A stretch of 64,000 nt of DNA from an uncultured delta proteobacterium. GTDB taxonomy: Bacteria; Desulfobacterota; Binatia; Binatales; Binataceae. The DNA is taken from contig CAWJET010000001.1 of the NCBI GenBank assembly GCA_963842085.1, positions 1,664,001 to 1,728,000 on the forward strand. The letters are read 5' to 3'. The stretch's first letter is position 1. Every line of letters starts with the position of its first letter. Made by a program: the position numbers and the translations under genes. The notes beneath the pieces are model-generated. The model saw nothing but the letters and a program-made list of their open reading frames with translations. It searched no databases and was not told where the DNA came from. Positions 53,753 to 63,495 of the stretch are shown piece after piece.

Positions 53753-56700
53753 ATGTCAGCTTCTCGTGAAATCATAATCTCCGAGCGCGCCACCGAGCGC
53801 ATCGCCGCCGCCCGCACTTGGCTGGAGTCGCAGCCGTCTGCGACCGAGCTCCTCGTGATCGCGTCGGTCAAGGAGGCTGCCGACGACCTGGTGCGCGCGT
53901 TCGCAGTTTCGCGCGGCGCGATGCTCGGCGTGCATCGCTTGACGCTCAACCGGCTGGTCGGTTTGCTCGCCGCCGAGGAGCTCGCCGATGCCGGCCTCGC
54001 GCCTGCGGACGGACTCGCCGCCGAGGCGGTCGCCGCGCGCGCGGTCTTTCGCCTGGCGCCGTCGGGAGCGCTCGCGCATTTCGAGCCCGTGTTGAATCGT
54101 CCCGGCTTCTCACGCGCGCTGGCACGCACTCTGATCGAGCTTCGATGGAACAACGTCGGCGTTGACGAGTTGCGTGCGCTCGGCGGCGCGGGTGAGGCGA
54201 TTGCCGCGACGCTGGCGCAATTCGACGCCGAGCTGACGGACGCCAAACTGATCGATCGCGCCGCGATGCTGAAAGTCGCGACGCGCGCCGTGCTCGCGAG
54301 CGATCCGCCGCGCTTCGTCGGACTGCCGGTTCTGCTGCTCGATGTTTCCGTGGACAGCGCGCTCGACCGCGACTTCATTGCGGCACTGGCCGCGCGCTCG
54401 CCCTCGATTCTCGCGACCATTCCCGCCGCCGACTCGCCCGTGCAGACGATCCTTGAAGATGCGCTCGGCGTACGGGCAACTTCGGTGTCGACGATCACCG
54501 ACCAAAACGTCGCGCCCTCGCTCGAGCGTCTGCAGGCGCATCTGTTCGCCGACACCGCCCCGCCCGAGCGCGGCGTGGACGAAACCGTGACGGTGCTTTC
54601 GGCGCCGGGCGAGATGCACGAATGCGTCGAGATCGCGCGGCGAATCGCAGCCGAGGCGAGGCGCGGCGTGCCCTTCGATCGAATCGCCGTGCTGCTGCAT
54701 GACCCCGTTCGCTACGCGCCGTACCTGCAGGAGGCGCTCGCCCGCGCGGACATCCCCGCGTACTTCGCGCGCGGCACGCGGCGGCCCGAGCCGGGCGGTC
54801 GCGCGATGCTCGCGCTGCTTGCCTGCGCCGCGGAAAATCTGTCGGCGCGCCGCTTCGCGGAATATCTGTCGCTGGCTCAGGTGCCGGACCCCGATCGCCC
54901 GCGTGAAGACGAGCCGGCCGTCACTTCGGACACTGAACTCGCGCCGGCGCCGCTCGAGTCGGATCTCAAAGTCGAGAGCAACGCCGCAGACGACAGTCCC
55001 GGCGACGCAGTCGTATCGGATCCCGTTCCGGTCATCGAAGGAACGGCGCGGGCGCCGTGGCGATGGGAACGATTGCTCGTCGATGCGGCGGTGATCGGCA
55101 GCGCTGAGCGATGGCGCAAGCGGCTGGCGGGATTGGCCAACGAGCTGGTGGCGCGGCGCGCGGAAATTGCCGACGACGACGCGCGCGCAGCGGGCCTGGA
55201 GCGGCGAATTCTCGACCTCGCGCATCTCGGCGAAGTCGCGATGCCGATCCTCTCAATGCTCGAAACGGCGCCGCACGATGCGACCTGGGGCGACTGGCTG
55301 AAATTTCTTCGCTCGCTGGTTGAGCTGGCAATTCGCGACCGTGAGCCGGTTCTCGCCGCGCTGGCGGAGCTCGAGCCGATGGCGCCGGTCGGGCCGGTCG
55401 GACTCGACGAGGTTCGCCTGGTGCTGAACGATCGGCTCGGGCGGCTGGAAGCTCCGCGCCGCGTTCGCCGCTACGGCGCGGTGTTCGTCGCGCCGCCGAA
55501 TCGCGCGCGCGGCATGGAGTTCGACGTCATAATTGTTCCCGGCCTTGCCGAGCGAATGTTTCCGCGCAAGCTGACCGAGGATCCGATCCTATCCGACGCG
55601 GCGCGCGCTCGCCTGAGCCCGTATCTCGCGCGGAATGAGCGGCGGGTTGGCGCGGAGCGGCTCGCGCTCAGAATTGCGGCGGGCGCGGCGCGCGAGCGTG
55701 CGATGTTTTCCTATCCGCGCGTCGATCTCGACCAGGGCCGGCCGCGAGTGCCTTCGTTCTACGCGCTTGAAGTTCTGCGCGCGGCGGAGGGCAAACTTCC
55801 CGGCTTCGATGAGCTGGCGAATCGCACGGCGACGCAGCCGACGACCCGCCTCTCATGGCCGGCGCCGGCGAATCCCGCCGACGCGATCGATGACGCGGAA
55901 TTCGATCTGGCGGTGCTGGACAAGCTGGTCGACGCCGATCCGCAGACCACGATTGGCGCGGCCCACTATCTGCTCGGTGCTAACGAGCATCTCGGGCGGG
56001 CGCTGCGCGCCCGGGCGCGGCGCTGGCTCCGGCGATGGACGCCGGCCGACGGGCTGGTCGATCCGGACGCGGCGGCGCTGGCGGCGTTGGGCAAGCATCA
56101 GTTGATCGCGCGTTCATACTCACCGACCGCGCTGCAGAATTTCGCCTCATGCCCTTACCGTTTTTTTCTGCAAGCGATCCATCGGCTGGAGCCGCGCGAG
56201 GAACCCGAGGCGATCGAAACGCTCGATCCGCTCACTCGCGGCGGCCTGTTCGCCGAGGTTCAGTACGAAATCCTGTCGGCGCTCAGAGAGCTCGACGTGC
56301 TGCCGGTCACGCCGGAAGATCTGGAGGACGCGTCTGCGCTGCTTGACGAACGGCTCGAGGAAGCTGCGAAACGATGGCAAGAGAATCTCGCGCCGGCAAT
56401 TGAGCGAGTATGGGACGATGGGATCGAAAGTATCCGCGCCGACTTGCGCGAATGGATGCGGCGCGCGGCCGACGATCCGGAGCACTGGCGGCCCGAATGG
56501 TTCGAGCTCGGCTTCGGGCTGAGCGATCGCACGCAGGCGGACCCGCATAGCTCGGCCGACCCGGTCGCAATCGACGGCGGGCTCAGCCTCCGCGGGTCAA
56601 TCGACCTGCTCGAACGCGATCCGGCCGGGCGAATTCGCGTGACAGATCACAAGACCGGGAAAGTGCGCGCCGCCAAGGACTTCGTGATCGGCGGCGGCAA

Positions 56701-57028
56701 GACGTTGCAGCCGGTCTTGTACGCGCTCGCGGCTGAACGTGTGCTTGGCGAGCCGATTTACGCCGGGCGGCTTTACTACTGCACCGCGACCGGCGGCTAT
56801 GAAGAGCGCGTGGTCGAAATCAACGATGAGGCGCGGCGCGCCGCCCGCGATTTCGTCGCGATAATCAAGGAGTCGCTGGAAGCGGGGTTTTTGCCGGCGG
56901 CGCCGGACGATCGCGAATGCGATTGGTGCGACTACAAGCGCGTCTGCGGCCCGTACGAGGAGCGGCGCTCCAAAATCAAACCGCAGGCGCGGCTCAAGTC
57001 GCTGACGCGGCTGCGCGAGATGCGCTGA
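53753..57028 (+). CDS. addB: AddB-like PD-(D/E)XK nuclease subunit with Fe-S staple
   Basis: SPTALQNFASCPYRFF, GSIDL...DHKTG, C-terminal CDWCDYKRVC (four Cys in total). Confidence 0.85.
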   Translation: MSASREIIISERATERIAAARTWLESQPSATELLVIASVKEAADDLVRAFAVSRGAMLGVHRLTLNRLVGLLAAEELADAGLAPADGLAAEAVAARAVFRLAPSGALAHFEPVLNRPGFSRALARTLIELRWNNVGVDELRALGGAGEAIAATLAQFDAELTDAKLIDRAAMLKVATRAVLASDPPRFVGLPVLLLDVSVDSALDRDFIAALAARSPSILATIPAADSPVQTILEDALGVRATSVSTITDQNVAPSLERLQAHLFADTAPPERGVDETVTVLSAPGEMHECVEIARRIAAEARRGVPFDRIAVLLHDPVRYAPYLQEALARADIPAYFARGTRRPEPGGRAMLALLACAAENLSARRFAEYLSLAQVPDPDRPREDEPAVTSDTELAPAPLESDLKVESNAADDSPGDAVVSDPVPVIEGTARAPWRWERLLVDAAVIGSAERWRKRLAGLANELVARRAEIADDDARAAGLERRILDLAHLGEVAMPILSMLETAPHDATWGDWLKFLRSLVELAIRDREPVLAALAELEPMAPVGPVGLDEVRLVLNDRLGRLEAPRRVRRYGAVFVAPPNRARGMEFDVIIVPGLAERMFPRKLTEDPILSDAARARLSPYLARNERRVGAERLALRIAAGAARERAMFSYPRVDLDQGRPRVPSFYALEVLRAAEGKLPGFDELANRTATQPTTRLSWPAPANPADAIDDAEFDLAVLDKLVDADPQTTIGAAHYLLGANEHLGRALRARARRWLRRWTPADGLVDPDAAALAALGKHQLIARSYSPTALQNFASCPYRFFLQAIHRLEPREEPEAIETLDPLTRGGLFAEVQYEILSALRELDVLPVTPEDLEDASALLDERLEEAAKRWQENLAPAIERVWDDGIESIRADLREWMRRAADDPEHWRPEWFELGFGLSDRTQADPHSSADPVAIDGGLSLRGSIDLLERDPAGRIRVTDHKTGKVRAAKDFVIGGGKTLQPVLYALAAERVLGEPIYAGRLYYCTATGGYEERVVEINDEARRAARDFVAIIKESLEAGFLPAAPDDRECDWCDYKRVCGPYEERRSKIKPQARLKSLTRLREMR

Positions 57029-57033
57029 CAACA

Positions 57034-60000
57034 GTGAGTGCGGCGATAATATCCGATCAGGCGGTGCGCGATCGCATTCGCGACGATCTCGGCGTCACGC
57101 TCGTAATCGAGGCCGCGGCCGGGACCGGCAAGACCACGGCGCTGGTGAATCGCATCGTGTCGGTGATTGGCTCGGGTCGCGGCGAACTCGCGCGGATCGT
57201 CGCGGTCACGTTCACCGAGAAGGCGGCCGGCGAGCTGAAGCTCAGGCTGCGCGCCGAAATCGAGCGGGCGCGCCAAAGCACGGAACCTTTGAGCGAAGGG
57301 CGCGCGCGCTTCGACCTGGCGCTCAAGCAACTGGAAGAAGCGCGGATCGGAACCATTCATTCGTTTTGCGCCGACCTGCTGCGCGAGCGGCCAGTGGAAG
57401 CGCAAGTCGATCCGATGTTCGAAGTGGCGCCCGAGGACGTTGCCGGAGAGATGTTCGACGCCGCGTTCGACCGATGGTTCGAGCGGCTGCTCGACAATCC
57501 CGGCGAGGGAATGCGCCGACTGCTGCGCCGGCGCGATCTGTCGGCGCGCACGGGGCCGCGCGAGATCGCGCGCCGCGCGGCGCTCGAGCTGATGAACTGG
57601 CGCGACTTCGATTCGCCGTGGGCGCATTCGCCGTTCGCGCGCGACGCCGAAATCGACGCGATAATCGCAGCGGTCGAAGCGCTTGGCAAACTTGCCGAGC
57701 TCGGCGAGACGGACGACTGGCTGGCTCGGAGCCTCGACGCGATCGCGAAGCCGGTCGCCGAGGCAACGCGGCTGGAGGCGGTGCGCGGGCGCGACTACGA
57801 CGCGCTCGAATCGGTGCTGGTCGCGCTGAGCACCGGGCGGCGCTGGGATTGGAAGGGATATGGCGGCGGCTTCGGCGAAGTCGAGCGCGAGGAAGTCTTT
57901 CGGCGCCGCGCCGAGTTGCACACTCGGTTGGAGAGGTTTCGCGACAATGCGGGCGCGAATCTCGCGCCTCTGCTGCGCGATGAACTGTGGCCGATCGTCG
58001 GTATCTACGAAGACCTGAAGCGCCGCGCGGGACGGCTCGACTTCCTCGACCTGCTGCTGGTCGCGCGCAACCTGGTCCGTGACAATCCGGCGGTGCGCGC
58101 CGAGCTGCAAAATCGCTTCACGCATATTTTCATCGATGAGTTCCAGGACACCGATCCGCTGCAGGCGGAAATCCTGCTGCTGCTTTCGTCCGCCGATCCC
58201 GGCGAGACCAACTGGCTGAAGGTCAAGCCGATCGCCGGTAAATTATTTATCGTCGGCGATCCGAAACAATCGATTTACCGTTTCCGCCGCGCCGACGTTT
58301 CGCTTTACCAGGGCGTGAAACAGTTGCTGTTGATGCACGGCGCACAGCTCCAGCATCTGACCGTAAGCTTTCGCGCCACGCCCGCGATTCAGACGATGGT
58401 CAACGCGGCGTTCGCCCCGCTGATGAGCGAGGAATCGGGCACCCAGCCGGCGTACGCGCCGTTGATGCCGTATCGACCTGAGCCGGGGACGCAGCCTCCG
58501 ATCGTCGTGCTGCCGGTGCCGGAGCCGTACGGCGAGTACGGCCGCGTCGTCAACTGGAAAATCGACGAGTCGATTCCCGACGCGATTGCCGCTTACGCGC
58601 GCTGGCTGGTGCATGAAAGCGGATGGACCGTGACCGAGCGCGAGGCGCCTGAGGTGCGCGTGCCGATTCGCCCGCGCCACATCTGTATCCTGTTTCGTCG
58701 CATGAATTCGTTCGGGCGCGACGTGACGCGGCCGTACCTGCGCGCGCTCGAAGCGCGGCATCTGCCGCACGTGCTGGTCAAGGGCGGATCGTTCAACGAG
58801 CGCGAAGAAGTGCTCGCGCTGCGCAACATCCTGGGCGCAATCGAGCGGCCCAACGACGAGTTGACGGTATTCGCCGCACTGCGCGGTCCCGTGTTCGCGC
58901 TGTCCGACGCGGCGCTGCTCGAATTCCGCATGACCGTCGGCAGCGTGCATCCGTTTCGCAAGCTGCCCGACAACCTGCCTGACGGTCTAAAGGAAGTGAA
59001 GGGCGCGCTCGACGTGATCAAGGGATTGCATCGCGGGCGGAATCGAAGGCCGATCGCGGAGACGATTGCGAAGCTGATGGCTGAAACTCGCGCGCATGCG
59101 GGGTTCGCCATTTGGCCGACCGGCGAGCAGGCGCTGGCAAATATCATGCGAATCATGGACCAGGCGCGGCGTTATGAAGCGCGCGGCGGCACCACCTCGT
59201 TCCGGGCGTTCGTCGACGAGCTCGAAGCGCGCGCCGAACGCGACGAAGCGAGCGAGACGCCGATCGTCGAGGAAGGAACCGAGGGCGTACGCATAATGAC
59301 GGTGCATCGCGCCAAGGGCCTCGAGTTTCCGGTCGTCATCCTGGCCGACATCACCTGCAACGAAACTCGCGCCGACGCGTCGCGGTATATCGAGCCGGCG
59401 TCGAAGCTGGCCGCGATGGAACTCGCGGGATGCGCGCCGCGCGAACTGCAGGAGCATGCGGCGAAGGAGCATGACCGCGACGTGGAAGAATCGATCCGGC
59501 TGCTGTACGTGGCCTCGACGCGCGCGCGAGACCTAATCGTCGTGCCGGCGGTTGGCGACGAAGAGAGTGGCGGCTGGCTCGCGCGGCTGAATCCCGTCGT
59601 CTGTCCGGCGAATACCGAGCGGCGCGCGCCGTCGTCATCGCATCCGGCAGGTTGCCCCGAATTCGGCGATGACAGCGTGCTGACGCGGCCGCCGAAAGCG
59701 CCGGGAAAAACAAAATCGGTGGCGCCGGGATTACATCGCGCGCAGCAGGGTGCGCATCAAGTAGTCTGGTGGGATCCGCGGCTGCTGATCCTGAACGTCG
59801 AGGAGAAGATGGGGCTGCGGCAGGACAAGCTGCTGCAGGCCGACGAAAGCAAGCTCGTATCGGACCGTGGCGAAAAAATGCGCGAACAGTGGAGCGCGAG
59901 CCGGACGGCGATGCTCGCGGCGGGAACGACGCCGAAGATACACGTTGCGACGGCGACCGAACTCGCGCTCGCAGCGCCAGCGGACGGACCGGCGTCTGCC

Positions 60001-60486
60001 GAGGCGATCGCGATCGAAGAGACGCGTCGCGAGCGCGGCCGGCCGCATGGCAAGCGCTTCGGCACGCTGGTGCATCTTACGATGCTGCGTGCGCCTTTTG
60101 CTGCGGACGCGCGCGAGGTCGGCAAGATCGCGGCCAGTGCGGCCAAGATGATCGGCGCGCCGGAGGAGGAAGTCGCCGCTGCGGTGACTGCTGTAAAGGC
60201 TGCCCTCAATTCTCCGCTGATGCGTCGGGCCGCGGCCGCGCAGACGGCGATGCGTGAATGTCCGCTGATGATTCGGCTTGAAGACGGCACCGCAGTCGAA
60301 GGAATCGCAGACCTCGCGTTCAAGGAGAGCACGAACGACGGCGCACTATGGACGGTGGTCGATTTCAAGACGGACATCGACGTCGCGGCGCGGCTCGACG
60401 AATATCGCGCGCAGATCAGGTTCTACGTGCGCGCGGTGAGGGAGAGTACGGGGCAGCCTGCCAGCGGCGCGATTTTGTGGATCTAG
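57034..60486 (+). CDS. addA: AddA-like UvrD helicase with C-terminal nuclease
   Basis: AAAGTGKT, TFTEKAA, IDEFQDT, VGDPKQSIYRFR, HRAKGLEF, GIADL...VDFKT. Confidence 0.88.
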   Translation: MSAAIISDQAVRDRIRDDLGVTLVIEAAAGTGKTTALVNRIVSVIGSGRGELARIVAVTFTEKAAGELKLRLRAEIERARQSTEPLSEGRARFDLALKQLEEARIGTIHSFCADLLRERPVEAQVDPMFEVAPEDVAGEMFDAAFDRWFERLLDNPGEGMRRLLRRRDLSARTGPREIARRAALELMNWRDFDSPWAHSPFARDAEIDAIIAAVEALGKLAELGETDDWLARSLDAIAKPVAEATRLEAVRGRDYDALESVLVALSTGRRWDWKGYGGGFGEVEREEVFRRRAELHTRLERFRDNAGANLAPLLRDELWPIVGIYEDLKRRAGRLDFLDLLLVARNLVRDNPAVRAELQNRFTHIFIDEFQDTDPLQAEILLLLSSADPGETNWLKVKPIAGKLFIVGDPKQSIYRFRRADVSLYQGVKQLLLMHGAQLQHLTVSFRATPAIQTMVNAAFAPLMSEESGTQPAYAPLMPYRPEPGTQPPIVVLPVPEPYGEYGRVVNWKIDESIPDAIAAYARWLVHESGWTVTEREAPEVRVPIRPRHICILFRRMNSFGRDVTRPYLRALEARHLPHVLVKGGSFNEREEVLALRNILGAIERPNDELTVFAALRGPVFALSDAALLEFRMTVGSVHPFRKLPDNLPDGLKEVKGALDVIKGLHRGRNRRPIAETIAKLMAETRAHAGFAIWPTGEQALANIMRIMDQARRYEARGGTTSFRAFVDELEARAERDEASETPIVEEGTEGVRIMTVHRAKGLEFPVVILADITCNETRADASRYIEPASKLAAMELAGCAPRELQEHAAKEHDRDVEESIRLLYVASTRARDLIVVPAVGDEESGGWLARLNPVVCPANTERRAPSSSHPAGCPEFGDDSVLTRPPKAPGKTKSVAPGLHRAQQGAHQVVWWDPRLLILNVEEKMGLRQDKLLQADESKLVSDRGEKMREQWSASRTAMLAAGTTPKIHVATATELALAAPADGPASAEAIAIEETRRERGRPHGKRFGTLVHLTMLRAPFAADAREVGKIAASAAKMIGAPEEEVAAAVTAVKAALNSPLMRRAAAAQTAMRECPLMIRLEDGTAVEGIADLAFKESTNDGALWTVVDFKTDIDVAARLDEYRAQIRFYVRAVRESTGQPASGAILWI

Positions 60487-60504
60487 GGAAGGGCAAATCA
60501 CTCT

Positions 60505-60566
60505 ATTGAATGCGAAACCCGCGGTGGGTTTCGCTCTTCCTTCGGCAGGGGTGACCCTGCACCCAA
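60505..60566. repeat. Family A bipartite repeat
   Basis: ATTGAATGCGAAACCCGCGGTGGGTTTCGCTCTTCCTTCGGCAGGGGTGACCCTGCACCC. Confidence 0.75.
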
Positions 60567-60619
60567 TTATTCAGAAGAGACGCAGTTCGCCCTGTTCCTA
60601 ACCTTCTCCCTATCCGAAA

Positions 60620-60769
60620 GAGGTTTGCACAACCTGGCTCGCAGTTCTTCCCCTCTCCCTGCATGGGAAAGGATGAAGGTGAGGGTCCTTATACAGCGCG
60701 CTCCTTTGCGCGCGATTCAAGATTCTGGTTCTGCATGAATCTGTCCACCGAGGTTATGCAAAAACGCTC
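60620..60769. mobile_element. Degenerate MITE splitting a family-B REP
   Basis: Inverted repeats TTTGCACAACCT (60624-35) and AGGTTATGCAAA (60751-62); the flanks CCTAACCTTCTCC and GGAGAGGTTGG are the two arms of one palindrome. Confidence 0.55.
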
Positions 60770-60861
60770 TCGCACAAGGAGAGGTTGGATTCGGACGCGA
60801 GAGGTTAAGCGCTTGGTGGATGTGGCGGGTTTGTGCTGAAATCTCGGTGCGAGGGAATTAG

Positions 60862-61959
60862 ATGGCTATCGACATTATATATGGCGAACGCGCGACGGTT
60901 GGAGTCGATGCTAAATCGACCGGTGGCGGGTTGTGGCTAAGTGCGCACGACCTCAAACGAGTCAGCGGATGGGAGTTCAAGCCGCAGGGATTCTGCAAGG
61001 GAGATGTCTGCGTGCCTGTGCACGGCGCGCGGATGACCGAGTTTGTCGATGGCGGCCGTTACAATCTCGCGGCGCTGGCGAGTCTGCTCGGACAGCCCGT
61101 CGCGACCGACGCCGAGCATCATGCGTGGTGCTTCGGCGAATCCGCGGCCGAGCGAAAGCGGATCCTGACTTCGCTCGAAGCGCCGGATTTCAGCCTGCCC
61201 GATCTCGACGGCAAGATGCATTCGCTGTCCGACTATCGTGGCAAGAAAGTCTTCGTCGTTTCATGGGCGTCGTGGTGAGGATGCCGCTTTGACCTGCCAG
61301 TCTGGCAGGCGCTTTACGAAGAACTCGGAGCGAAAGGATTCGTGCCCATCGCGATCGCATTCGACAGCGGCGGCAATGCCGCGACCGAGCCGTGGATCAA
61401 GGCGGCGAAGCCCACCTATCCATGCCTGATCGATCGGCGGCATCTCGTGGCCGAGCTTTACGACATGGTCAACGTGCCGACCGCGGTCTGGATCGACGAG
61501 CGCGGCAAGATAGTCAGGCCCAGCGAGCCGGCCGGCGTCTCGGACGCATTCAGAAAGATGAACCGCACGAACTTTTCCATTCCCGCCGACGCGATGAACG
61601 AGCTGCAGGCAAAGCGCAAGGCTTACCAGGATGCGCTCCGCGACTGGGTGGCGAAGGGATCGAAAAGCCGGTTCGCGCTCGGCGAGGCGGAAGTTCTCAG
61701 ACGGATGCATGCGCCGGACGACATGCAAGTGCGCGCGGCGGCGAATTTCAGGCTCGGCGAATTTCTGTTCGAGCACGGACACGCGGAGGCGGCAAAGAAA
61801 TATTTCGAGGAATCAAAACGGCTGCGCCCCGATAGCTGGAACTACAAGCGGCAGGCGTGGGCGCTTGAAGATCCGATGAAGGCGGGCGGTCCCGAGTTCT
61901 GGGCAGCGGTCGATTCGCTCGCCGATGGCAAGTACTACCCTGGCGCGGAGGATATATAG
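60862..61959 (+). CDS. Selenocysteine-containing TlpA/ResA-like redoxin (WAxxUGC motif), 365 aa
   Basis: ORFs 60862-61278 and 61342-61959 are in the same frame, separated only by TGA 61276-78 at the redox position: KKVFVVSWASW-U-GCRFDLPVWQ. Confidence 0.9.
61279..61312 (+). promoter_or_regulatory. Putative bacterial SECIS element
   Basis: Hairpin CCTGCCA-GTC-TGGCAGG at 61293-61309, with the loop G 22 nt after the UGA. Confidence 0.7.
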
Positions 61960-61990
61960 GGCAGGGGTGACGCCTGCACCCAGTGCTAAG
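61960..61990. repeat. Family A repeat, single hairpin
   Basis: GGCAGGGGTGACGCCTGCACCCAGTGCTAAG. Confidence 0.65.
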
Positions 61991-62075
61991 CGGGAGGTGT
62001 CACAGACACGCGGCCGACGCGTGTCCGCGCGCGGCGGGTGAGGGGCCAAATTTTCCGGGATTCTGAGAATCAGGT

Positions 62076-62972
62076 TTGTACAATCGGGAAATACTAGTCG
62101 TCGAATACGGATCGTTGCTTAGCGGCTATGGGTTGCTGGCTGAGCGGCGCGGTGGTGCGAGCCGGTTGCTGGCGCGCGACGTGGCTCCGGTCTCGATTCA
62201 CAATGCGCGGCGCGGACTGGCCAAGCCGTCCAGCCATGGCAGGTATCTCGCGATGGATATCGAACCGGTCGATTCCGCTACTCCAATCAGCGCTTCGACC
62301 ACGGCGGATGACGGGATAGGCGGGCTGCTGCTTACCTTCGATCGCGGATACGCGCCGATGATCGCGCGGCGCGAGGAATACGATCCCAATGCGTTCGAGC
62401 GGTTGATCTCGCTTGCGGATCGCGCGGGCAAAGCGCTGGGCGAGTACCTGATGGAAATCGCGAGTGACACGAATTTCGATTTGCTCGCATACCGGACCAG
62501 GCTGCGCAGGCTGCTCGACTACACCTCGCCCGGATACATTTTCCATCCGATTGAAATCGACGACGGCCGTGTCGCCATTATTGCGATCGGTTCGGGCTTC
62601 GAGGGCAGCGGAGATCCGAAGGTGGTCTCACGACGGCAGCAATTCGGGATGGACCGGCTGCTGTCGCTCGAGGAGTCGATCCGAACCGAGATTCCCGGTT
62701 TCGATCGTGCCGGGCAGATAGGATATTACGCGGAGTGTATTCTCGGCGGCTTGCACGGCGTTGAGGTAGGCGACCTGACGCCGCAATTCGATCCTGACGC
62801 TCGATGGGCGCGCGAACTCGCGACGCATCTCGGGCCGCTCGCCGTCGGCGAGCGCGAGCGGTTTATCGAGGCCACCTCGCTCGACGCGGCGCGCTACGGT
62901 GAGCGGTTCTCAAGCTCCTCGCGGCGAATCGCGAGCCTGGCGGCGCTGCTCGAGCTGGCGGGAGTTGTATAG
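62076..62972 (+). CDS. Hypothetical protein, possible gamma-glutamylcyclotransferase/ChaC-like fold
   Basis: N-terminal VVEYGSLL and later IARREEY resemble GGCT-fold motifs. Confidence 0.55.
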   Translation: MYNREILVVEYGSLLSGYGLLAERRGGASRLLARDVAPVSIHNARRGLAKPSSHGRYLAMDIEPVDSATPISASTTADDGIGGLLLTFDRGYAPMIARREEYDPNAFERLISLADRAGKALGEYLMEIASDTNFDLLAYRTRLRRLLDYTSPGYIFHPIEIDDGRVAIIAIGSGFEGSGDPKVVSRRQQFGMDRLLSLEESIRTEIPGFDRAGQIGYYAECILGGLHGVEVGDLTPQFDPDARWARELATHLGPLAVGERERFIEATSLDAARYGERFSSSSRRIASLAALLELAGVV

Positions 62973-62988
62973 TGACGGGAACGAGTCG

Positions 62989-63495
62989 ATGGCAACCAAA
63001 GCAGGTTTTTCGATCCGTGTCGCGAAAGAGAATCTGAAATTCTCGGCCGCCCATTTTATCGCCTACCCGGGGTTTCGCGAACCGCTGCACGGCCACAATT
63101 ACCAGGTCGGCGTGTACCTCGAAGGGCGGCTGGCGAAGACCGGCTACGTGATCGATTTCGGCCTGATCAAAAAACTCACCAAGGAGATCGTCGATCGGCT
63201 CGACGAGCGCACGATCGTTCCGCGCGACAGCGATTGCCTGACGATCGACGGACCCGCCAACGGGGTCGTGCGAATCCGCTACGAGCAAGACGAGTTCGTG
63301 CTGCCGGCCGCCGACGTGTGTATCGTGCCGATTGTGCACAGCTCGGCGGAAGAACTCGCGCGCTACATCTGGGAGGAGTTGGCGGCGGCGCTGGATGCGC
63401 GCGGCGCGCTGACCGAAGTGACGACGATGGAAGTCTCGGTGGCCGAGGGTCCGGGCCAGTCGGCGCACTATCGAAACTCGACCGGCAGCATCTAG
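62989..63495 (+). CDS. 6-pyruvoyl-tetrahydropterin synthase family, PTPS-III type
   Basis: FSAAHFIAYPGFREPLHGHNY, VIDF, SAEELA. Confidence 0.9.
   Translation: MATKAGFSIRVAKENLKFSAAHFIAYPGFREPLHGHNYQVGVYLEGRLAKTGYVIDFGLIKKLTKEIVDRLDERTIVPRDSDCLTIDGPANGVVRIRYEQDEFVLPAADVCIVPIVHSSAEELARYIWEELAAALDARGALTEVTTMEVSVAEGPGQSAHYRNSTGSI

Follow-up and report, generated by a model that had tools for sequence, protein, structure and literature searches.

The window, that is the whole stretch of 64,000 nucleotides that was analysed, contains a single reading frame from an ATG at position 60862 to a TAG at 61957-61959 on the forward (+) strand, on which all features described below are located. The only internal stop codon of this frame is the TGA at 61276-61278. 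With this TGA read as a codon for selenocysteine (Sec, U), the region 60862-61959 would represent a complete selenoprotein gene of 365 codons plus the TAG. Translation table 11 splits the frame into an ORF of 138 aa (60862-61278) and an ORF of 205 aa (61342-61959), which are in the same frame. The TGA is part of the sequence WASW-TGA-GGA-TGC (61264-61284), which yields the active-site motif W-A-S-W-U139-G-C141, and the TGC codon of C141 is located at 61282-61284. The sequence-only reading that preceded this analysis had joined the two ORFs in frame across one TGA, and the frame, the coordinates, and the motif WASW-U-G-C were all confirmed by direct reading of the DNA. A putative Shine-Dalgarno-like sequence, GAGGGA, was found at 60851-60856, 5 nt upstream of the ATG. 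A promoter scan of the region 60400-62150 did not reveal a sigma-70-like site, and a terminator scan of the same region yielded two terminator-like sites versus 1.5 expected, one of which (60512-60534) follows the helicase gene further upstream. These promoter and terminator signals are too weak for defining a transcription unit.

The gene had been suspected to be normally mis-called as two genes, and this turned out to be correct. C-terminal pieces of 205-231 aa accounted for 106 of the best 120 database proteins, showing that gene callers still split the gene in two. The window gene should be annotated as one selenoprotein. Contigs from four public runs were also compared with the gene, and none of the 40 listed differences (198 more exist) is located at 61276-61278 or in the region 61293-61309, which contains the hairpin described below. 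Contigs from RNA libraries span the TGA (X16 record 17, 61123-61385); such libraries can hold DNA and the contigs indicate presence only, and thus they are no more than compatible with read-through.

The conservation of the TGA was analyzed with 100 loci, which comprised the window locus, 19 loci from a genome search, and the best 80 of 372 relatives. Some of these loci represent the same genome reached twice, and the set contained 84 distinct 90-mers and 73 distinct 60-mers. The sequence WASW-TGA-GC was present in 99 of the 100 loci, and the one exception (L104), which is cut off ahead of the TGA, starts at residue 138. Homologous loci were found in Candidatus Binatus / Binataceae, in Dehalococcoidia / Chloroflexota, and in Rokubacteria / Methylomirabilota. 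The TGA was thus seen repeatedly in assemblies that are independent of one another and represent several phyla, and therefore a sequencing error could be excluded. The family was frequent in the phylum of genome G434, where 77 of 151 sampled genomes were positive and one TGA was present in all 92 match rows. In the class of genome G435, 17 of 151 genomes were positive, and 16 of the 18 match rows contained one TGA. Matches at E<=1e-50 were rare in the phylum to which the window belongs, with 5 of 401 sampled genomes, all of which are members of the window's class. The family is widespread among soil lineages and almost always occurs in the Sec form.

A search in 41 relatives revealed one TGA in 34 of 40 rows. 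Of the six rows that lacked a TGA, five were C-terminal pieces that start past the motif, and the sixth (genome G032) was a true Cys form. This form (L128) is an uninterrupted homologue of 349 aa with the motif SSW-C-G-C, in which the first Cys is encoded by TGC. Two further Cys forms, L131 and L132 (genomes G731 and G655), have the motif WASW-C-S-C, again with TGC at the position of the TGA. In the Cys forms, the gene is one uninterrupted frame that encodes 349-392 aa. The pairing of TGA and Cys codons that was to be expected for a Sec position was therefore observed at the same column at the DNA level, and the one-residue C-x-C spacing is a trait of the family. The Sec column was also inspected in 14 full-length database proteins, which contained C in 11 cases, W in two cases, and S in one case; these are protein-level data, and the 11 proteins were not counted as Cys forms. 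The two entries with W suggest that the TGA had been read as Trp. The close homologues use Sec near-exclusively.

Downstream of the TGA a perfect 7-bp hairpin is located at 61293-61309, which has the features of an in-frame bacterial SECIS element. It consists of the 5′-arm CCTGCCA (61293-61299), the loop GTC (61300-61302), and the 3′-arm TGGCAGG (61303-61309), and it encodes the peptide (D)LPVWQ(A). Counted from the first base behind the TGA, the loop G at 61300 has position 22, so that 21 nt lie between the UGA and the loop. The published bSECIS model (PMC13188914) describes a loop of 3-9 nt, a stem of 4-16 bp, an energy of -7.5 kcal/mol or lower, a G within the first two loop positions that is followed mostly by G or U, and a UGA-to-loop distance of 16-37 nt. 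The hairpin agrees with this model in all points, with a loop of 3 nt (5 nt if the seventh pair is open), a stem of 6-7 bp, the loop dinucleotide G-U, a distance of 21 nt, and an energy of -10.4 kcal/mol for the hairpin alone. The earlier description of a perfect hairpin with a loop G 22 nt downstream was thus found to be accurate. Minimum-energy folding of a 71-nt stretch also produced the hairpin, but the energy of this stretch as a whole is unexceptional (z -1.40; 13 of 200 shuffled sequences were at least as stable). A search of the region 61200-61400 against Rfam did not retrieve a SECIS family at E<=10. It gave only two matches, c-di-GMP-II-GAG (E 4.3) and a trypanosomatid snoRNA (E 6), which were both at chance level and were discarded.

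The six outer pairs of the stem can form in all 73 distinct sequences, and the seventh pair can form in 31 of them. Double compensatory changes in the stem were found twice, in L107 (TTG..CAA) and in L114 (GAT..AGG). The shuffle controls gave a count of 3 of 500, which does not equal a probability since the sequences are related. However, the conservation of the hairpin is partly a protein-level effect via the overlap with the coding sequence. Because the hairpin also encodes the conserved peptide DLPVWQ, its conservation alone proves little, and therefore silent sites were examined. To this end, 112 conserved degenerate columns were compared in 82 distinct coding sequences with a length of 330 codons or more, which remained after short and duplicate sequences had been removed from 99. 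The stem codons of D144, L145, and Q149 were the most constrained, with normalised codon entropies of 0.17, 0.09, and 0.10, respectively. In contrast, other conserved columns had values of 0.84-0.98 (Asp), 0.39-0.80 (Leu), and 0.58 (Q331); again, this contrast cannot be converted into a probability because the sequences are related. The codon of Leu145 was CTG or TTG in every sequence. At residue 151, a conserved hydrophobic position six codons downstream, CTT, CTC, CTG, CTA, and TTG were all found among the 73 distinct 60-mers, as well as ATC or ATG (Ile or Met) in 12 of them.

The loop dinucleotide was G[U/G] in all 73 Sec forms (G-U in 72 and G-G in one), versus none of the three Cys forms, the loops of which read G-C or A-U. 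It should be noted that this comparison includes three Cys forms only, two of which are close kin. The stem is still present in the Cys form L128 and largely present in L131 and L132. The third positions of the codons for Pro146 (61299) and Val147 (61302) were found to be coupled, which might mark a closing pair that presents the G-U to SelB. If this is true, the coupling would be a detail of a SECIS element that is legible from one family. Taken together, the silent-site constraint, the two compensatory changes, and the tracking of the TGA by the loop G-U provide DNA-level evidence for the SECIS element, which is a modest addition to published knowledge.

The genome that contains the window (4.93 Mb in 2 contigs) was found to encode a complete Sec machinery. 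The genes selA (558 bits), selB (367 bits), and selD (380 bits) scored above the curated cut-offs. The selD gene is adjacent to selB and itself contains one in-frame TGA. A tRNA-Sec was detected with the Rfam tRNA-Sec model (70.9 bits), and ARAGORN also identified it as tRNA-SeC with the anticodon tca. Two further matches to the Rfam model, which were barely over the cut-off, turned out to be a tRNA-Ser and a tRNA-Leu.

One rival explanation is that the TGA is a true stop codon, and that the locus is a pseudogene or contains two separate genes, for proteins of 138 aa and of 205 aa. Translation with table 11 indeed yields the two ORFs, most gene callers split the frame likewise, and TGA is by no means a rare stop codon in the window, as 29 out of 60 stop-to-stop frames with a length of at least 300 codons end with it. 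However, a split at this site would disrupt a thioredoxin fold directly at the active site, and the 63-base interval from the TGA to the GTG of the second ORF maintains the frame and codes for conserved residues in every locus. Furthermore, the TGA column has been kept across phyla together with the SECIS element and the Sec machinery, and the Cys forms are not interrupted at all. A true stop is thus regarded as extremely improbable.

The read-through protein, with U written as C, scored 347 bits with the NCBIfam model NF041054, which has a cut-off of 300, and the genome frame scored 340.3 bits. NF041054 is an equivalog model with the name 'WAxxUGC_long' and the description 'ResA-like WAxxUGC motif-containing protein'. 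The label 'ResA-like WAxxUGC', which had been mentioned in the sequence-only reading, is thus real, and the window gene encodes a member of this family. The match covers positions 9-328 of the 354 profile positions, while relatives reach positions 350-354. Apart from this earlier end of the match, none of the tested features differs, and both the WAxxUGC motif and the three-part architecture are shared.

The family had already been predicted in 2008 as 'Prx-like (UGC-containing)', which was assigned to pfam00578, comprised 46 Sec sequences, and was commoner in non-marine samples (PMC2398784). Supplementary file 1 of that study contains 'WASWUGC' five times. The reads in the supplement have the form ...TWASWUGCRLDVPVWQ..., with ...KPEGACFRELCIPL... 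upstream and ...FRLG...DP.SWNY.RQ...YYAPLE downstream, and thus the motif, the N-terminal Cx4C domain, and the tail are the same as in the window protein (PMC2398784). The 855 'Cys homologs' in the table of that study presumably represent the wider pfam00578 family (PMC2398784). A table in a 2026 review re-labels the family as 'TlpA disulfide reductase family', and the example accession of the review is MDE0950781.1. The string 'UGC' is absent from the main text of a 2016 survey, and both 'UGC' and 'NF041054' are absent from the main text of the BSepDB paper. The term 'WAxxUGC' was absent from the papers that were searched, and experimental work on the family was not found in the papers that were consulted. 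The published family entries consist of names in tables, and in the passages that were consulted neither the N-terminal Cx4C domain nor the SECIS element nor the near-absence of Cys forms among close relatives was described. Hence, the existence of the family is already known, and the novelty that the earlier reading had implied was over-rated, because a curated model and the prediction of 2008 exist.

A structural model of the full-length protein was generated from 43 sequences and had a mean pLDDT of 94.2 and a pTM of 0.89. It predicts with confidence three domains, the first of which would have no recognised fold among the results of the Pfam, Foldseek, and VIA-align searches. This N-terminal domain (residues 1-100, 60862-61161) is predicted to be beta-rich with a pLDDT of 89. 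It contains the proposed CxxxxC stretch, GFCKGDVCVP, with C45 (60994-60996) and C50 (61009-61011) forming a C-x4-C motif, and both Cys residues are invariant in all 43 aligned sequences. A Pfam search with the domain did not yield a match at E<=10, and a Foldseek search did not yield a match at E<=0.001. The likeness of residues 1-100 to usher N-domains was too weak for an assignment (best Foldseek E 0.41; VIA-align Z 4.2-5.2, which is under the meaningful level), and the same is true for 5h3k_A, the best VIA-align hit, with a Z of 6.1 that is also under the level that the tool calls meaningful. In the ESM Atlas the clusters nearest to residues 1-100 contained proteins that lack an annotation and are 85-111 aa long (score 0.95), which is a lead only. 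A profile search with the domain retrieved 1169 matches at E<=0.001, and most of the 150 that were listed were 90-210 aa long, mostly pieces of about 130-145 aa. The short matches P0122, P0131, P0137, P0139, and P0144 were evaluated as candidates for a free-standing version of the domain. They seem to be fragments of members of the same family that were cut or that end at the TGA, and therefore these matches gave no evidence for a free-standing N-terminal domain.

The second domain (about residues 105-232, 61174-61557) is a redoxin domain with a thioredoxin fold that has the ResA/TlpA insertions, and it was found to be ResA/TlpA-like by PDB profile searches and by Foldseek. In the PDB profile search the E values ranged from 6e-23 to 1e-16, and the matches included 3kcm (E 6e-23), ResA (about 1e-19), TlpA, and StoA. 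Foldseek superimposed ResA (2f9s_A) with an rmsd of 1.4 over 115 columns and 30% identity, and the ResA chains had a probability of 1.00 and TM scores (target) of 0.74-0.78. The HMMER alignment, 'Wc.GC' versus 'WCpPC', placed U139 at the position of the nucleophilic Cys and C141 at the position of the second Cys, with a gap of one residue. The Sec codon at 61276-61278 is thus aligned to the first Cys of the ResA/TlpA-type WCxxC motif ('WATWCpPC' in 3kcm), exactly as had been claimed before, including the UxC spacing. C141 is invariant in all 43 aligned sequences and is encoded by TGC in 81 of 82 coding sequences; by analogy, it is probably the resolving Cys of the U-G-C centre. The residues N204-V205-P206, which include the cis-Pro position, are invariant or nearly so.

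The third domain (about residues 242-351, 61585-61914) is all-helical in the model. It includes one TPR-like repeat (residues 292-324, 61735-61833), as indicated by a match to TPR_2 and by matches to consensus TPR structures at the profile positions 289-325. With the tail alone, TPR_2 had an E value of 0.00036 and a score of 20.9 bits, which is below the Pfam gathering threshold of 27, and only one repeat-like unit was found. Of the TPR-like C-terminus that had been proposed, the resemblance to consensus TPR structures was retained, while the signal turned out to be weak. A membrane segment was not found by hydropathy analysis, in which the highest Kyte-Doolittle mean over 19 residues was 0.98, and the N-terminus is polar. 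Because of the missing hydrophobic segment and the polar N-terminus, the protein is probably cytoplasmic.

The best Pfam match of the redoxin domain (residues 106-219) was AhpC-TSA (PF00578; E 4.2e-20, 72.4 bits versus a gathering threshold of 26), followed by Redoxin (E 3.5e-15). PF00578 also covers TlpA-like proteins, and thus this match does not decide the chemistry of the enzyme. It could be that Sec139 is peroxidatic, as in peroxiredoxin or glutathione peroxidase, and that it reacts with peroxide to a selenenic acid, which is then resolved by C141. The AhpC-TSA match, which is not specific for reductases, is compatible with this chemistry, as are weak matches to GSHPx and Gpx7 and the filing as 'Prx-like (UGC-containing)' under pfam00578 in 2008 (PMC2398784). 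However, the closest solved relatives, by profile as well as by fold, are reductases of the ResA, TlpA, StoA, and Etrx type and not peroxiredoxins, the W-A-x-W lead-in is of the ResA/TlpA type, and both the NCBIfam name (ResA-like) and the label in the table of the 2026 review point in the same direction. Therefore, a peroxidatic function, although it is the main rival reading, is considered to be unlikely.

The gene neighbourhood was analyzed as a possible source of information about the substrate. The upstream genes encode a PD-(D/E)XK nuclease and a UvrD-type helicase, and downstream an ORF of 298 aa that has no Pfam match, a gene for a 6-pyruvoyl-tetrahydropterin-synthase-like protein, and a gene for a sigma-54 activator are located. 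Four flanking genes were kept in 58, 47, 42, and 37 of 80 loci, which were close relatives only. None of the flanking genes was found in the 18 loci with the greatest distance (L105, L106, L109, L112-L114, and L116-L127), and a clustering of the ORFs around 16 distant loci did not reveal a common neighbour beyond the two halves of the gene itself and antisense frames. Because the neighbours are conserved only in close relatives, no information about the substrate could be derived from them.

The neighbourhood is also of relevance for a possible role in metal or metalloid handling. The U-G-C motif and the Cx4C motif might bind Cu, Hg, As, or similar elements, or the protein might reduce a metallochaperone, as TlpA does for ScoI/CoxB. 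Structures of TlpA bound to ScoI or to cytochrome oxidase subunit II (4txo, 4txv) were indeed among the fold matches, and two invariant Cys pairs are present in one protein. However, a conserved neighbour involved in metal transport or oxidase assembly was not found, the NCBIfam and Pfam matches did not include a metal-binding family, and the hydropathy analysis gave no indication of an export signal, unlike the extracytoplasmic TlpA. Metal handling is thus judged to be quite improbable, clearly more so than a peroxidatic function.

The explanation that is very probably correct is that the locus contains one gene for a 365-residue, probably cytoplasmic selenoprotein of the family NF041054, which is decoded with the help of the SECIS element and has a thiol-disulfide chemistry of the ResA/TlpA type at its U-G-C centre. 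The selenoenzyme of 365 aa that had been postulated is thus supported by the family score, the Sec machinery, the pairing of TGA and Cys, and the features of the SECIS element. The hairpin, which starts 15 nt and ends 31 nt after the UGA, would present its loop G-U and thereby recruit SelB and the Sec-tRNA(Sec), so that the UGA would be read as Sec and not as a stop. Sec139 would then be located where the first helix begins in a thioredoxin fold of the ResA/TlpA type, in place of the nucleophilic Cys. Its selenolate may attack a disulfide of a partner or another oxidised sulfur or selenium centre, and C141 would resolve the mixed intermediate, leading to an intramolecular selenenylsulfide. The U-G-C centre could be re-reduced by the thioredoxin system of the cell or by the invariant C45-x4-C50 pair, and the TPR-like tail may hold a partner protein. 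It is tempting to speculate that Sec is near-obligatory because the short U-G-C motif needs selenium, and that the Cx4C motif is a built-in second redox centre of a self-contained two-centre selenoenzyme, but this extension is doubtful. In any case, the family is a reasonable target for first biochemistry in view of its one-residue U-G-C spacing, its TPR-like tail, and its invariant Cx4C domain, for which a fold was not recognised.

A one-residue spacing between Sec and Cys is shared with other selenoproteins in the table of the review, namely DUF1573 (OS_HP2) with 'UGC', the thioredoxin-like Sec.2 with 'UxC', and the SO_0444 transporter with 'UxC', and OS_HP2 reads are also present in the supplement of the 2008 study. 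To judge from their names, these are unrelated folds and families. ResA of Bacillus subtilis and TlpA of Bradyrhizobium japonicum have in common with the window protein the thioredoxin fold, the W-x-x-W lead-in, and the Pro at the cis-Pro position. In contrast, their active site is C-x-x-C, while the U-G-C of the window protein is one residue shorter and has Sec at the first position, and also the Cys forms of the family have C-G-C or C-S-C instead of the C-x-x-C of the TlpA/ResA family. The scores with the respective NCBIfam models were far below the cut-offs for ResA (75.7 versus 170), StoA (47.9 versus 210), and TlpA (45.5 versus 230). ResA and TlpA have a membrane anchor or an export signal and act outside of the cytoplasm, whereas neither a membrane anchor nor a signal peptide was detected by hydropathy analysis in the window protein. 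Furthermore, the window protein has additional domains at the N-terminus (100 aa) and at the C-terminus (about 130 aa). If the N-terminal Cx4C motif indeed acted as a second redox centre, the window protein would be a two-centre selenoenzyme, unlike the single-centre ResA and TlpA proteins.

Two silent positions at the loop of the SECIS hairpin (61293-61309) were found to be mutually coupled. Window positions 61299 and 61302 (columns 30 and 33 of alignment A2) are the third codon positions of Pro146 and Val147, and their combinations in 73 distinct Sec-form sequences, i.e., homologous sequences with TGA at the active-site column, were C:G (42), G:C (9), A:U (2), and A:C (20). Just G-U, in one sequence G-G, lies between them, which is shorter than a normal loop allows. 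Judging from these sequences, both positions may form a closing pair that presents the G-U to SelB, while lineage structure may be an alternative source of the coupling. In contigs of four soil runs, the summed depth was maximal in the bin 61269-61305 (61.9, 26.3, and 34.5 in three of the runs), and short contigs of other organisms matched solely in this bin. The depth peak fits a cross-species conservation of the TGA-plus-hairpin segment at the nucleotide level.

Among the database proteins P0022, P0040, and P0024, two full-length entries contain W in place of Sec, which suggests that the gene caller took the TGA as Trp. In one entry of the same group S-E-C replaces U-G-C, together with DLALWQ.

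The genome encodes further Sec genes outside the window. The selD gene (L010, G000:C1:2099530-2100456) is directly adjoined by selB (L002, 2100611-2102506), and the gene for tRNA-SeC (C1:2126878-2126969) is situated about 24 kb away. Because selD contains one in-frame TGA, it probably encodes a selenoprotein itself. Several genomes of the same genus contain two to four matches, compared with a single match at this level in the genome of the window. A genome of this genus, G007, contains a second paralogue (L130, 612-1784, plus strand, 390 codons) with the motif WASW-TGA-GC-SLDLPGWQ, and its N-domain (Cx4C) and tail are the same as in the gene under study.

Upstream, on the plus strand, an AddB-like PD-(D/E)XK nuclease (53753-57028, 1091 aa) and a UvrD/AddA-like helicase (56917-60486, 1189 aa) are encoded in frames that, as listed, overlap by 112 nt; a terminator-like hairpin (60512-60534) follows the helicase gene. 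Directly downstream, also on the plus strand, is an ORF of 298 aa (62076-62972), for which a Pfam search yielded no match and which was retained at this place in 47 of 80 related loci. The next gene is 6-pyruvoyl-tetrahydropterin-synthase-like (62899-63495, plus strand). The latter two frames, as listed, overlap by 74 nt, and therefore the true start of one of them is probably further downstream.

A profile search with the N-domain revealed that, among the matches listed, giant repeat proteins repeatedly matched profile positions of about 25-72, namely P0134 (2822 aa, 15 stretches), P0180 (1649 aa, 12), P0256 (1881 aa, 11), and P0235 (811 aa, 7). In P0235 Pfam detected a PKD domain, and each repeat (...SPDGSCxGATCTA...) contains a G-x-C-x4-C hairpin that resembles PEGFCKGDVCVP, a hint that the Cx4C unit might be a disulfide-stapled beta-hairpin within an Ig-like domain.
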